Below, piece by piece: positions 3,965 through 31,057 of a stretch of DNA of 64,000 nucleotides (positions within the stretch are counted from its first letter, which is position 1; the number at the start of each line of letters is the position of its first letter). Below the pieces are notes generated by a model. That model was given only the letters and a program-made list of their open reading frames with translations. It did not search any database and was not told where the DNA came from. Both the position numbers and the translations under genes were made by a program. Source of the stretch: a virus (lineage: Duplodnaviria; Caudoviricetes); the IMG/VR virus record IMGVR_UViG_3300003375_000001, positions 174,518-238,517 of that record; one strand, given 5' to 3'.

Positions 3965-4564
3965 TTAGACTGCAGGTGTAGGCGTAGGGGTGTCTGTTGG
4001 AGGAGTAGCCGTAGCAGTTGTGTCTGTTGGAGGCGTCGTTGTAGCCGCCGCATCTGTAGATGGTGTCGTTTCTGTTGGAGGCGTAGCCGTAGCAGTTGTG
4101 TCTGTAGTAGTGTCAACTGGTGGTGCAGGTGAGTCAATAACCGGAGGCACTGTAGCGTCAGTTAGAGGCACGATAGTGTCTAACACGGGGTCGGCGGGGT
4201 GACCTTCTTGCGCGTCTATGGCTATAGAATCTGCTTCCAAGGAGGCCTCTACTTCTGCAAACTTTTCAGTATCAGCTGGTGGCACGTACAAAGCGGCGAT
4301 ATCAACGTTACCCGTTGTAGCTGCTTGGATTGCGTCAATACTAACTTTAACGAACCCTTCATCCTGTAGCATAGCTATAACGGCATCCGGAAGAATATCC
4401 AAGTTTTCGATGGACATGGCGGCTGTTTCTCTGCTGATACCACCATAGTAATTAAGGATACCTGCGTAAGAAACGAAGTCCTGTGCTGTTAGCTGTTCGG
4501 TAAGCTCTGGGGAAGTGGTCGCGTTCAAACGAATCAGAGCGTTTTTAATGATGATGGCTGACAT
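3965..4564 (-). CDS. Hypothetical protein with Thr/Pro-rich repeated C-terminal tail
   Basis: 199 aa; tail TTDTTATATPPTETT...TDTTATATPPTD is encoded by DNA direct repeats at about 3990-4105. Confidence 0.75.
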   Translation of the reverse strand: MSAIIIKNALIRLNATTSPELTEQLTAQDFVSYAGILNYYGGISRETAAMSIENLDILPDAVIAMLQDEGFVKVSIDAIQAATTGNVDIAALYVPPADTEKFAEVEASLEADSIAIDAQEGHPADPVLDTIVPLTDATVPPVIDSPAPPVDTTTDTTATATPPTETTPSTDAAATTTPPTDTTATATPPTDTPTPTPAV

Positions 4565-26727: not shown

Positions 26728-27252
26728 TCATGTAGGGAAGTGTTTCGAGTACTCCTGATCTATTAAGGCAGATATGTATTCGCCCGTCGTCAGATCAGTA
26801 AACGACTTAAGTGCTTCTAATTTTCGTCTTTGTTTTCCTGTTAGTTCAAGGTGTACAGGGGCCTTCTTATTCGGATCGTCTTTAGTGGCGAGCCAAGCAG
26901 TGTATACCACGCGTGACAAGTATAGCAGACGTTCGTACTCTTGTCTACCTATGCGGTTCAGAGAAGAGACTACTCCAGGTGTTATTGCAAAAGGTGAGCC
27001 TTGAGCTATCATGCCTTCTGCAATTTTGTGCAAAAGCGTGTGATGTCCTGTGCAGAGACTTACGGTTGGCCCTTTGGCACCGCCGTAAGCTTGAGGAACA
27101 GGGTGGTGTTCCTCTCGTATGATACCGGGGTCATCACCACCCGAGTCTATGAATAACTTACGGCATACCCAGCAACAAGGCAATACCAGTGTCTGGCGTA
27201 TTGGTGCTTCTGGTATGCCAGTAGTAAAGTCATGAGTTAGGGTACGCGCCAT
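26728..27252 (-). CDS. HNH-like nuclease with C-terminal ribbon-helix-helix-like segment
   Basis: CWVC...EHHPVPQAYGG...VSLCTGHHTLLH; C-terminal VHLELT...LEALK...GEYISALI. Confidence 0.65.
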   Translation of the reverse strand: MARTLTHDFTTGIPEAPIRQTLVLPCCWVCRKLFIDSGGDDPGIIREEHHPVPQAYGGAKGPTVSLCTGHHTLLHKIAEGMIAQGSPFAITPGVVSSLNRIGRQEYERLLYLSRVVYTAWLATKDDPNKKAPVHLELTGKQRRKLEALKSFTDLTTGEYISALIDQEYSKHFPT

Positions 27253-27739
27253 AACTATTTTTGTGATCTGGCTGATCGCATGTTAGCACACTGGTATTAA
27301 ACATAGAACACACAGGGTCATCCAGCGTTACTGACCGTAGTGTTGCGCGCAAAGGCTTCAAGTCCATGTTGAGTGTATTGACAAGGCTCAGACAAAAATT
27401 CTTTGCTGAAGCACCTCTCAGGGGATCGTTGACCCATTTGAAGTAAGGCTTCATGTTAGGCAAGGGGCCTACAAGAAACTCTGCAAGGTCTGTTCTATGC
27501 GTCACGAGGTCTAGAAAGATATCCAGTTCCGACTGTTTCAAGCGCGGGTTGAACAGGAGCTTGGCGCTGTTAAACTGGAGGTCGATTGTAGAGGTAGCCT
27601 CGTGGTCTATGTCTTCCATAATAGGAGCAGACACAAATATTGTGGGGTTGCGCTCAAGCTCTATAGGAGCGCCTCCCGATATCGTGTGCAAGTAACCGAG
27701 AGACTTAGGGTCAAATTCTGCGATTAGAACTCTCATCAT
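27230..27739 (-). CDS. Hypothetical protein
   Basis: Start at 27739 (MMRVLIAE) by ATGA overlap with the upstream stop. Confidence 0.7.
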   Translation of the reverse strand: MMRVLIAEFDPKSLGYLHTISGGAPIELERNPTIFVSAPIMEDIDHEATSTIDLQFNSAKLLFNPRLKQSELDIFLDLVTHRTDLAEFLVGPLPNMKPYFKWVNDPLRGASAKNFCLSLVNTLNMDLKPLRATLRSVTLDDPVCSMFNTSVLTCDQPDHKNSYGAYPNS

Positions 27740-28611
27740 GCGTCTCCAAAAGCGAATGACCATCGCGTCAGTGCGAAAGCTCCGCCTGAACACTTACGAA
27801 GGATAGCCAGCTCGCCAGGCGTTATTAGCCAGTAGCACCGAGCGCCTCGCCACGCCGATGTCACTTCTATAACCTCGTAACGCGGAAACTTAGACAATGC
27901 CGATTCTACAATCTCGGCATAAAGGCCTTCAGCCTCGTCCCTATGACGAGAGGTCCATTCAGAAGGCTTCAACTCAGGGTTCTTCATCAAGGAGTGAATG
28001 TAGTCCCGAGGAATTACAAGCACCTTCTCTTTTGTAAGAACAGTGTAGCCGCCTAGCGAAGTACTAGGTACCCCATGCTTTGCCAGCATGTTGTAGCTGA
28101 TGGCATTTATAACGTCGATAGGCTGAGCAGGGCCGCCCGTACGCTTGACTTGTGTCCATTTACCCTGCTTAAGCTGAGGAATGATAGGCGCTGATCCTAG
28201 CCAAATTTTGTTGTGTTCGATAGCTGTCAGCACTTCGGAGCGGACGAGGCCATAAGAACCCATTTGCCTAGGGATATCTGCGGCAGCATCTGCTTTTGTA
28301 GTTGAGTCCAATGAACTGCTTATGTAGTCAGCCACGCGAGCCTTGAAAGACAAAACCACGGGGTTCAGCACTGCGGCTGCACCAGCTTTGGACAGCATGC
28401 CACTACTAAGTTCGTCACGTACGGACGAAAAGGTGTTCATCAGTTTTAGAATGTCTGGGCGCAAAGCCGAATGCTTCTTGCCGATGTCGTTGAGAACAGA
28501 GTGAACGCTTTTGTGGAGAGACCCATTATCGGGGTCTATAAGAGAAGCCTTGACGCGAGCCGATACCTGACTGGCGTGCCCCTCAAGGGTTAGTGAATCG
28601 GTGTAGTCCAT
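27736..28611 (-). CDS. Hypothetical protein
   Basis: 291 aa; GAGG SD. Confidence 0.75.
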   Translation of the reverse strand: MDYTDSLTLEGHASQVSARVKASLIDPDNGSLHKSVHSVLNDIGKKHSALRPDILKLMNTFSSVRDELSSGMLSKAGAAAVLNPVVLSFKARVADYISSSLDSTTKADAAADIPRQMGSYGLVRSEVLTAIEHNKIWLGSAPIIPQLKQGKWTQVKRTGGPAQPIDVINAISYNMLAKHGVPSTSLGGYTVLTKEKVLVIPRDYIHSLMKNPELKPSEWTSRHRDEAEGLYAEIVESALSKFPRYEVIEVTSAWRGARCYWLITPGELAILRKCSGGAFALTRWSFAFGDA

Positions 28612-28710
28612 TTGGAATTAACCTCTCAAAGACTGTATAGAAAAGGTTTGTAGCAGTAGAAGCCACTAAGTAGAGAAGGCAGACCTGGTCATTCGAGAGA
28701 ATCCAGAAAC

Positions 28711-28758
28711 GCAAAAGAGCCTGGTCCCACGATCTGTTAGGGAGTCAGGCTCTTTTGC
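28711..28758 (-). terminator. Terminator after histone-like gene
   Basis: 13-bp inverted repeat GCAAAAGAGCCTG/CAGGCTCTTTTGC. Confidence 0.75.
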
Positions 28759-28780
28759 TGGATGTCAGATTCGGTAGATA

Positions 28781-29074
28781 TCAGATATCGCCGAAGTCGT
28801 CGTCTTTCACCTTGATGGACTTCTTGACAGGCTTGCCACCTTTGACGACCTTAGCAGCCTTCTTTGCGGGAGCCTTCTTAGCCGGTGCACCCTTAGCAGC
28901 CTTCTTAGCTGGTGCAGTCTTGACGACCTTAGCAGCCTTCTTTGCGGGAGCCTTCTTAGCCGGTGCACCAGAAGCTTCAGCTTCTTGCGCGGCTTGAAGG
29001 GCTTCCAGTGTCGTGTTCAAGGCGGCGGTTTGCTTCTGGGCCTTGTTAGCCAGTGCAATTGTTCGTTTGCTCAT
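28781..29074 (-). CDS. Histone H1-like Lys/Ala-rich protein (97 aa)
   Basis: PAKKAPAKKAAK repeats; start MSKRT at 29074 with an AAGGA SD. Confidence 0.85.
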   Translation of the reverse strand: MSKRTIALANKAQKQTAALNTTLEALQAAQEAEASGAPAKKAPAKKAAKVVKTAPAKKAAKGAPAKKAPAKKAAKVVKGGKPVKKSIKVKDDDFGDI

Positions 29075-29103
29075 GATGTTTCCTTTTCCGTGTAGGGAAG
29101 TAT

Positions 29104-29173
29104 GCGAGGGTCTCTGTTTGAAAATCCTCAAATTCAGCTAGCGAGACCCTCACGAGAAACGCTGATTTTGAGG
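29104..29173 (-). promoter_or_regulatory. H-type pseudoknot in the 5' UTR of the histone-like gene
   Basis: S1 29161-29173 pairs with 29126-29138 (12/13 bp); S2 29143-29153 pairs with 29104-29114 (11 bp); stems interleaved. Confidence 0.65.
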
Positions 29174-29191
29174 CTCATTTACTCACAATTC

Positions 29192-29220
29192 ATTATAACA
29201 CAATTTTGCGCTTGTGTCAA
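29192..29220 (-). promoter_or_regulatory. Consensus sigma70 promoter
   Basis: TTGACA-17 nt-TATAAT with TG extension. Confidence 0.9.
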
Positions 29221-29270
29221 ATGATGTAGTGAATCAAATTGTGGTTGTCGTTAAAAGTTAACAGTTCCTA

Positions 29271-30809
29271 TCAGTCCAGCCACCATTGAGTTTGAGACTT
29301 TGTTGGACGATTGTTTTGTTGATTGAACTTCGTCAGACAGAATTCAAAGTAGGCTTTTACCGACTGGGCTGGCTTCTTTCGCTTGGCAATAAGAGCTTTG
29401 AGCTTGGCTTTAGTTTCGGCTAACTTGGTTTTCAAGTTGTCCTGATCAAGCTTAGCCAATTGCCTTACCTTCAGTTCCAGAATTTGATTAGCCTGTTCAA
29501 CCGTTATCTTCAAACCTTTGGCAATCAGCTCTGCGGTGTTTGGCTTACGCAAGGCATTCATGATAGTGTCCAAATGATCACACGCATGAATGAGAAGTTC
29601 CATATAGGCAATGTGCTTTTCTACTTCACCTATTTGGTAGTCAAGCGAATCGGCTTCAAGTTTTACTCGAAACTTGAGCCAGGTCATGGCAAGCTCAGGA
29701 ACAGACAGAGCCTTGAAAGTTGTGTCCGCTTCGTTGCGACCATTGCGCACTCGAAGTTTTCTATCCGACACATAGACGTTGTAGCTGACCTTACTTCGCG
29801 TGAGAGCCTTGACCTTTTCGGCTACCGCGTTAAAGTCATTCATATTCACTGTCTTGCGAACTTGAATAACGTAGCTAAGGCCCTTACCTGAAGACACACC
29901 TTGCACCATGCTCTTCCACCATCTGGACTCTTCCAGTTGTCGCTTGGTAGGAGCTTTCTTTGACTCGGGGAGCTTTCCTTGCACCTTTGCTATCACAGAG
30001 CCTATGTTTACTTCAGGGGCAAACTTGTTCCACGAGATAGTCTTTTTGCTGGTGTCTATGTCTAGCGGAGACTCAAACTCGATGGTCGCATTAGGCGTGT
30101 TCATCAAGTTTAGGATGGACTCTCGATTCGATTTTGACTTTACTACCTGAGCACCCCAGGAAGTATTGAAACGTAGGCCCTTAGCAAAGTCTACAGGCGT
30201 AACCTCCTCTCTGTCTAGCATCCTACACATCAACGGCAGAAGAGACTCAGGAGTAAAGCCAGGTAAACTTGATTTGGTACCGTAACCGATACCCGTTTGA
30301 GAGTTGAATAGAATGTTTGGCAGCAGGCAGGGCAGATATACAGGCTCTTCATCCTTGTCATCATAGTTTGGCATTATTGGCGACACCGCCAAATAGTTTG
30401 GCTGCACAAACTGCCGACCGTATATAGACAAGCGAGCAGCAGGATACCTCATGGCCGCTGCGGGGTCTACTAGGTTACCCCAGTTCCCTTGCCCTTCAAG
30501 AATAGGTACGTCGCACGTAGCGGCGACAACCATAGCTCCATATATGGAAGAATCCCCGTGGGGGTGGTACTTACCAATCACGTCACCAACGATACGGGCT
30601 GCTTTGGTATACTCTCTAGCTATCTTTGAAGAGGCCCACGTTATGCGTCTGGTGACAGGCTTTAAGCCGTCCTGCAATGCTGGGGTGGCACGTTCCTCGT
30701 TTACTTCTGTGCCATAAGCTTTCAACGATACTTTCGCGTAGTCTCCAAGTTCTACGCGGCCTACTTCAGCCCGCTTCGTTGATTTAGCGGCTGGTGGTTT
30801 CTTTGTCAT
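29271..30809 (-). CDS. gyrA: Type IIA topoisomerase subunit A (GyrA/ParC family), no C-terminal pinwheel
   Basis: DGLKPVTRR, GKYHPHGDSS, GQGNWG, catalytic AAMRY; only 512 aa, so probably not a supercoiling gyrase. Confidence 0.93.
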   Translation of the reverse strand: MTKKPPAAKSTKRAEVGRVELGDYAKVSLKAYGTEVNEERATPALQDGLKPVTRRITWASSKIAREYTKAARIVGDVIGKYHPHGDSSIYGAMVVAATCDVPILEGQGNWGNLVDPAAAMRYPAARLSIYGRQFVQPNYLAVSPIMPNYDDKDEEPVYLPCLLPNILFNSQTGIGYGTKSSLPGFTPESLLPLMCRMLDREEVTPVDFAKGLRFNTSWGAQVVKSKSNRESILNLMNTPNATIEFESPLDIDTSKKTISWNKFAPEVNIGSVIAKVQGKLPESKKAPTKRQLEESRWWKSMVQGVSSGKGLSYVIQVRKTVNMNDFNAVAEKVKALTRSKVSYNVYVSDRKLRVRNGRNEADTTFKALSVPELAMTWLKFRVKLEADSLDYQIGEVEKHIAYMELLIHACDHLDTIMNALRKPNTAELIAKGLKITVEQANQILELKVRQLAKLDQDNLKTKLAETKAKLKALIAKRKKPAQSVKAYFEFCLTKFNQQNNRPTKSQTQWWLD

Positions 30810-30857
30810 CTGTTGACTTTCTGTATTTAAGGGTGGAGGTTGTGTGCTTGGAATAGC

Positions 30858-31057
30858 AGCCTAGGAGTACAGCAGCCCGATCGACTTGAACTCGGTTGTA
30901 AACTCTTTATCTAGGGTTTGGACAAGCTTTGATTTTTGAACGTGTACGAGTTTGAACGTTGCAGACTTAAGGTTTGAACGTTTACCTTTGAGCGTTAAAC
31001 TTTCAACTTTTACGCTAAATAGTTTAGCATGCACCTGACGCATGTGCCTACAAGGCT
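30858..31057 (-). ncRNA. Candidate ncRNA with a 7-nt periodic array (GTTCAAA-like)
   Basis: About 12 heptamer-like units at 30928-31015, flanked by hairpins; 5' AGCCTTGTAGG can pair with 3' CCTAGGCT. Confidence 0.5.

Follow-up and report, generated by a model that had tools for sequence, protein, structure and literature searches.

Genomic context and the H1-like gene

The window, that is, the whole stretch of 64,000 nt analysed here, corresponds to bases 174518-238517 of a 238,517-base record of an uncultivated phage in IMG/VR, with direct terminal repeats. Nearly all genes lie on the minus strand, as do all features described below, and coordinates are those of the window unless the genome or a relative is named. 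A gene for a GyrA-like subunit of topoisomerase II (29271-30809; Pfam DNA_topoisoIV, E = 1.5e-62) is followed, after a spacer of 196 nt, by a gene for a protein of 97 amino acids (28781-29074), and this in turn by a gene for a 291-aa protein without known function. The nearest named phages are Burkholderia phage BcepSauron and Ralstonia phage phiRSL1, with a topoisomerase identity of about 40%. The gene order, from topoisomerase through a small Lys/Ala-rich gene to a homolog of the 291-aa protein, is kept in the relatives, which are designated here by locus numbers (L002, L019, and so on). In L017, a more distant phage, the region before the 291-aa homolog (1361-1762) codes for a basic protein in which three AT-hook-like KRGRP motifs take the place of Lys/Ala repeats; judged from its sequence, it would be an analogous DNA-binding protein occupying the slot of the H1-like gene.

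The 97-aa protein is rich in lysine, alanine, and proline (23 K, 26 A; pI 10.4); its N-terminal part is short and helical, its repeats are of the PAKKA type, and its tip, DDDFGDI, is acidic. In the window and in L002 it starts with MSKR(T/A)IALANKA. It has no match in Pfam or PHROG and does not reach the gathering threshold of HC2 (PF07382), a family that is matched by a single ortholog, that of L011 (E = 9e-11). 'H1-like' is used here as a description of composition and repeats, not of Pfam membership. In the literature, no description of these H1-like genes or of their leaders was found. An acidic-aromatic tip is present at the C-terminus of every H1-like member [DDDFGDI, DDDFPEN, DDDFLEA, DSFPNV, SDFDI, SEFLL, ADFDL, or EDFLV; 28781-28801 (minus strand) in the window, 6094-6114 in L002, and further in L008, L009, L011, L019, and L029-L063]. 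Bacterial SSB recruits partner proteins via a DDDIPF tip. By analogy with this motif, which it recalls, the H1-like tip may be a motif to which replication or topoisomerase proteins from neighboring genes dock.

Promoter, upstream block, and terminator

The H1-like gene is preceded by a sigma-70 promoter (29192-29220) composed of the -35 hexamer TTGACA (29220-29215), a 17-nt spacer, a TG extension, and the -10 hexamer TATAAT (29197-29192). The original prediction had called this promoter perfect, and it does match the consensus at 12 of 12 positions; it is the sole 12/12 match when both strands of the 238.5-kb genome are scanned, with 11/12 at three other sites. Transcription is predicted to start near 29185, giving a leader of about 111 nt, in agreement with the untranslated region of about 110 nt that had been proposed. 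The -10 hexamer plus downstream bases (TATAATGAATTGTG) recurs as a near-unchanged copy before a different gene in L023 (approximately 4440-4465) and in part in L019, a recurrence that suggests an early-promoter form common to the clade.

Upstream of the -35 hexamer lies a conserved 19-nt block, CGACAACCACAAUUUGAUU (CGACAACCACAATTTGATT; 29232-29250), identical in L002 and with a single occurrence on the minus strand of the genome. Its core, CAATTTGAT, is also found upstream of the L009 promoter, and CACAATTT within the block is an inverted repeat of AAATTGTG in the promoter spacer. From its sequence, the block may be regarded as a candidate regulator site.

At the other end, 3' of the stop codon of the 97-aa gene, a terminator-like hairpin, AAAAGAGCCUG ... 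CAGGCUCUUUU, followed by GCGUUU, was read from the sequence (28707-28756); a simple scan missed it, its loop being above the limit of the scan. The presence of this hairpin makes the H1-like gene likely to be monocistronic, a unit made up of the strongest promoter, a structured leader, a small basic protein, and a terminator.

In the distant relatives L022, L029, L032, L038, L043, and L063, no sigma-70 consensus is present and the leader is headed by a (C)TGTAAAT(A/G) or CGTAAATA motif, located about 90-110 nt upstream of their H1-like genes; this motif may be a -10-only or a phage-specific promoter. GTAAAT was also considered as a class of phage promoter in the genome of the window, and was rejected as it is not enriched there. 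Directly upstream of the L019 promoter (approximately 4150-4225), two tandem units of about 33 nt each contain a CCCC...GGGG hairpin (GTCAAAACCCCATTTATTTGTGGGGAATGC).

Structure of the leader element

Between promoter and start codon, 70 nt (29173-29104) contain two interleaved helices, S1 and S2, with all parts at the places given in the original prediction. S1 is formed by a 5' arm, CCUCAAAAUCAGC (29161-29173), and a 3' arm, GCUGAAUUUGAGG (29126-29138), position 29161-29173 pairing with 29138-29126 in 12 of 13 pairs around a central A-A mismatch. S2 is formed by GUGAGGGUCUC (29143-29153) and GAGACCCUCGC (29104-29114), the former pairing with 29114-29104 in 11 pairs, one of which is U-G. The arms follow each other in the order a-b-a'-b', and no nucleotide is common to any two of the four, which is the arrangement of interleaved, non-overlapping arms of an H-type pseudoknot. 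Three loops connect them: the pyrimidine-rich L1, GUUUCUC (7 nt; 29154-29160), complementary to GGAAAC of the ribosome-binding region; L2, GCUA (4 nt; 29139-29142); and L3, AUUUUCAAACA (11 nt; 29115-29125), long enough to span 13 bp.

S1 begins about 12 unpaired nucleotides after the predicted 5' end of the transcript. The ribosome-binding site lies outside the element: the distance from the end of S2 is 18 nt to the Shine-Dalgarno sequence AAGGA (29085-29081), close to the 20 nt expected, and 29 nt to the AUG (29074-29072), a start that is conserved in L002. The 17-nt block between pseudoknot and ribosome-binding site (29085-29101) contains a UUCC-N6-GGAA mini-hairpin and is the best-conserved part of the leader. 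In the tails of the L026, L043, L063, L011, and L009 leaders, CUUCC, CUUUCC, or CCUU is located a few bases 5' of a purine ribosome-binding site, so that fold-back is possible there too; the pattern hints at a general translational damping of H1-like genes across the family.

Several other readings of the element were rejected. Neither helix is followed by a U-run, as an attenuator or terminator would be; a 14-codon frame, MSLKISVSREGLAS, running from an AUG at 29177 through S1, L1, and S2, lacks its AUG in L002 and is no conserved leader peptide; and the arms are found only at the element within the genome, which disposes of a dispersed repeat. Searches against Rfam gave no covariance-model match at E <= 1 on either strand of 27000-31000.

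The energy of the pseudoknot was taken as stacking plus a Dirks-Pierce-type penalty (9.6 kcal/mol and small per-base terms), the penalty being a crude one. In this rough estimate, the element reaches -30.5 kcal/mol as a pseudoknot vs -21.7 kcal/mol in its best nested fold; the corresponding values are -32.8 vs -23.3 for L002 and -33.5 vs -25.2 for L019. According to Arnott A-form phosphate coordinates, L1 (7 nt) has 25 Å to cross over the deep groove of 11 bp and L3 (11 nt) has 44 Å to cross over the shallow groove of 13 bp. Both are long enough for an H-type pseudoknot, and the loops of L002 and L019 also suffice. A fold-mask-refold pseudoknot search consumes parts of the second helix in its first layer.

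The original prediction had offered a conformational switch between the two stems as an alternative to the pseudoknot. The pseudoknot gained support from the interleaved helices, from the compensatory changes, and from the recurrence of the layout in L019 (both below), and the switch lost ground: with arms that have no bases in common, loops of sufficient length, and a gap of about 9 kcal/mol in favor of the knot, the modeled energies make a pseudoknot more likely than an S1/S2 switch. Since the four arms overlap nowhere, there is no competition of the kind seen between attenuator or riboswitch helices.

Comparison with chance

Leaders were scored by the best pair of interleaved helices, using nearest-neighbor energies. 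The leader of the window scores -35.7 kcal/mol in total (-15.7 and -20.0 for the two helices), dinucleotide shuffles averaging -13 kcal/mol, and no shuffle reached its total or its weaker-helix energy (0/300 and 0/200 in two sets of shuffles). When 11,920 segments of 120 nt from both strands of the genome were ranked, the locus came second by summed energy, after a 21-bp hairpin with a trivial partner, and first by the energy of the weaker helix, its two strands being counted as one site. The runners-up trail by a few kcal/mol; as this margin is modest and some segment must rank first, the genome-wide rank by itself proves little, and the real support comes from the relatives. Helix energies are alike on both strands and leave sense and antisense indistinguishable; in L002 the antisense strand scores above the sense strand. 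The next-best interleaved pair outside the locus is located on the minus strand at 173358-173517 of the genome, about 1.0-1.2 kb before the start of the window (-34.6 kcal/mol in total, -10.7 kcal/mol for the weaker helix).

Conservation of pairing in a close relative

The only close relative found is the L002 type, with a topoisomerase 80% identical to that of the window, compared with 40-54% in the other relatives. It is represented by 8-9 contigs from one ENA study and one Logan run, all of which carry one identical leader, and across all collections searched the element exists in two sequence versions only. A single-protein scan of IMG/VR returned no further relatives of the leader; a profile of the 291-aa protein run against IMG/VR and JGI metagenomes returned one distant locus and one L002-type locus only; no further leaders matched exact patterns of the conserved promoter and of the 17-nt block; and protein searches returned the H1-like protein itself alone and, for the 291-aa protein, the L002 type alone.

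Between the leaders of the window and L002, blastn detects two conserved blocks only, the promoter (32 nt, 97% identity) and the 17 nt before the ribosome-binding site (100% identity). The 70-nt element between them has diverged beyond its reach and has nonetheless retained its helices, which means that pairing was kept while the sequence drifted. In the ungapped alignment of the two, 22 of 23 pairs are standard, one cell being set aside as a gap, and there are no one-sided changes; when the gap is counted as unpaired, 21 of 23 pairs are kept and the two lost are both at the outer end of S2, so the cores of the helices are unbroken. Three pairs show double compensatory changes in L002, one in S1 (A-U to G-C) and two in S2 (A-U to G-C and U-A to C-G). 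When partner columns are slid by one to three positions, pairing falls to 26-48%.

Changes are less frequent at paired positions (10/46, 22%) than at unpaired positions (16/26, 62%; Fisher p = 0.002). If the 10 stem changes are placed at random, the probability of three or more compensated changes is 0.003, and that of two or fewer broken pairs is 0.0014; a covariation shuffle control, weak on two sequences, gave 68/500. The covariation in homologous leaders that had been suggested as a check on the original prediction is therefore present behind both helices, as one plus two compensatory pairs from a single pairwise comparison. This support is real, but thin. The loops are poorly conserved (0/4 positions kept in L2, 5/11 in L3), a pattern that speaks against an aptamer for a ligand and in favor of the shape of the helices as the selected feature.

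Leaders of other orthologous genes

The interleaved-helix score was also computed for about 20 distinct leaders that belong to orthologous H1-like genes. In L019 (topoisomerase identity 46%), a leader of unrelated sequence contains interleaved helices of 13 and 18 bp with loops of 13, 1, and 10 nt. Its total of -37.6 kcal/mol is reached by none of 200 shuffles, and it clearly tops its own locus (-17.2 vs -11.7 for the next). That the layout is kept with a wholly different sequence fits recognition of shape, not of sequence.

About fifteen relatives in all have ordinary hairpins only. The leaders of L008, L011, L021, L022, BcepSauron gp166, BCSR5, and L017 contain nothing beyond shuffles, or ordinary nested hairpins, and the same holds for the leaders of ten relatives that a topoisomerase profile retrieved from IMG/VR. 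An interleaved pair of 8 and 9 bp in L009 beats its shuffles, yet it does not exceed what coding segments of that contig give, and the leader has a nested fold of greater stability; the pair was discounted. As far as these sequences go, the interleaved layout is confined to the subclade closest to the window, where it has two unrelated sequence forms, and is absent from the wider family.

Discussion

Taken at slightly better than even chances, the best explanation is that the element is a real, selected RNA leader of the pseudoknot type that acts in cis on the H1-like mRNA. Positions 29173-29104 would fold in the mRNA as a large H-type pseudoknot; from the energy model we infer that both helices form simultaneously, and the action in cis would be post-transcriptional. 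The 13- and 11-bp helices would stack into a near-continuous duplex of about 24 bp, and this could be a duplex-like docking site for the encoded nucleic-acid-binding protein, which would limit its own translation, possibly aided by L1, which would pair with the ribosome-binding site only once S1 opens. Both functions put forward in the original prediction, translational autoregulation and stabilization, are proposed by analogy. Feedback by the encoded protein is the specific mechanism that we prefer, tentatively and, taken alone, at clearly less than even odds. More speculative, and unlikely in this full form, is a version in which the knot mimics about two turns of a double helix, the H1-like protein senses its own excess there and stops translation as the pairing between L1 and the ribosome site closes, and the arrangement arose at least twice in one clade of jumbo phages.

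The conserved fold might instead be a stabilizer or processing site of the mRNA, with no feedback by the protein, a possibility that we consider modest and only a little below that of feedback. It would block decay that depends on the 5' end, or present a double-strand-specific RNase with a stacked duplex of about two turns, and so give a long-lived message and an abundant protein. The strongest promoter and an own terminator suggest a unit for maximal output, the element is close to the 5' end and at a distance from the ribosome-binding site, its helices are conserved and its loops are not, and a stacked length of about 24 bp is within the range of RNase III substrates. Known 5' stabilizers, however, require a nearly flush 5' hairpin, and the roughly 12 unpaired nucleotides before S1 exceed what is found in them; moreover, a plain hairpin would suffice, which leaves the retention of an interleaved layout unexplained. 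A different kind of switch from that between S1 and S2, centered on L1, appears improbable. It would alternate between a knotted state with the ribosome-binding site free and a state with S1 open, in which L1 extends S2 and the site is closed, the balance depending on a protein, on temperature, or on folding during transcription. In each of the three leaders, whose sequences differ, L1 is complementary to the ribosome-binding region of that leader (GUUUCU:GGAAAC in the window, CCUCUU:AAGAGG in L002, CUCCU:AGGAG in L019), L1 is paired with the Shine-Dalgarno sequence in the nested MFE folds of the window and L019, and on geometric grounds the two states should be exclusive, because L1, with S2 formed, could not both cross S2 and stack outward. 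The window duplex (-6.3 kcal/mol) is equaled by 9 of 1000 random oligomers, but by 74 of 1000 shuffles of the loop; over the window, L002, and L019, random oligomers match the complementarity in 9, 17, and 55 cases per 1000, rising to 70-83 per 1000 with composition kept, so that its significance is marginal. Nothing similar is seen in L009, and with S1 at about -20 kcal/mol against about -6 kcal/mol for L1 and the Shine-Dalgarno sequence, closure would depend on a strong effector.

Two further explanations carry very little weight. The inverted repeats could act in the DNA, as operators for a dimeric regulator or as a cruciform, with the RNA fold as a by-product. They lie just downstream of a strong promoter, a common operator position, the half-sites of a palindromic operator would co-vary too, and helix energies are similar on both strands. 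Yet the arms are interleaved and 22 and 28 bp apart, and we know of no operators or extrudable cruciforms built in this way; on the opposite strand, the conserved U-G pair of S2 would become a mismatch of A with C; and L019 has the same layout with a wholly different sequence, all of which makes action in the DNA highly unlikely. Chance complementarity devoid of function is equally hard to credit. Some segment of a 238-kb genome must come first, here by a modest margin, and there is a single informative relative; against this stand the compensatory changes and the contrast in rate between stems and loops (each p of about 0.002-0.003), the recurrence in L019, and the placement in the leader of the strongest promoter.

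Among known systems, the preferred reading, a pseudoknot leader bound by the encoded protein, is closest to the operator of phage T4 gene 32. There, binding of the gene product to its own mRNA is nucleated at a leader pseudoknot of about 28 nt, next to which more than 40 nt of unstructured RNA, containing UUAAA/UAAA repeats, cover the ribosome-binding site (PMC535899). T4 gene 32, like that of RB69, and the H1-like gene are alike in that their leaders bear a pseudoknot toward the 5' side and that they belong to a DNA-metabolism module, with a product that is abundant and binds nucleic acids irrespective of sequence; in both, the pseudoknot forms the 5' boundary of the operator, a putative one here, and precedes the ribosome-binding site. 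They differ in that the present element measures 70 nt with helices of 13 and 11 bp, in that UUAAA/UAAA repeats are absent from its 29-nt tail (AUACUUCCCUACACGGAAAAGGAAACAUC), where the mini-hairpin is found instead, and in the product, which is an OB-fold ssDNA-binding protein in T4 and a Lys/Ala-rich H1-like protein here. There is no sequence similarity between the two leaders, and the element is an analogue of the gene 32 operator, not a member of its family.

In the rpsO (S15) and rpmI-rplT (L20) leaders of E. coli, the encoded RNA-binding protein stabilizes a leader pseudoknot and represses translation; the rpsO pseudoknot is in equilibrium with hairpins, and in both leaders the ribosome-binding site is inside or adjoins the pseudoknot, whose fold mimics an rRNA site. 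Here, in contrast, 18 nt separate the pseudoknot from the ribosome-binding site that follows it, and no natural RNA target is known that the fold could imitate. The chlamydial proteins Hc1 and Hc2 (HC2, PF07382) and other bacterial H1-like proteins with Lys/Ala repeats resemble the 97-aa protein in composition and repeats, but the synthesis of Hc1 is under translational control in trans by a small RNA and not by a leader pseudoknot. The pseudoknot riboswitches of Rfam (preQ1, SAM-II, fluoride, guanidine-III, and others) likewise have an H-type pseudoknot in the 5' leader; their helices are short and bases in their loops and junctions are conserved, whereas the present element combines long helices with loops that are conserved less than any other part of it.

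Leader pseudoknots that meter their own nucleic-acid-binding protein are textbook knowledge in T4 and rare elsewhere, and to our knowledge none has been described for histone-like proteins. The leader RNA of the H1-like gene is new, structurally unusual for its long helices, and, from its limited covariation and one independent recurrence, probably functional; by analogy, it is probably a control element of the kind known from phage T4. If autoregulation holds, the element would reveal how the amount of a DNA-coating protein expressed from the strongest promoter of a jumbo phage is adjusted, and would provide a compact RNA-protein pair; should the duplex-mimic form of it hold, this would be the first autogenous RNA operator for a histone-like protein. 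Even if it serves as a stabilizer only, it would still be a new conserved structured RNA family outside Rfam, in a poorly studied clade of phages related to phiRSL1 and BcepSauron.
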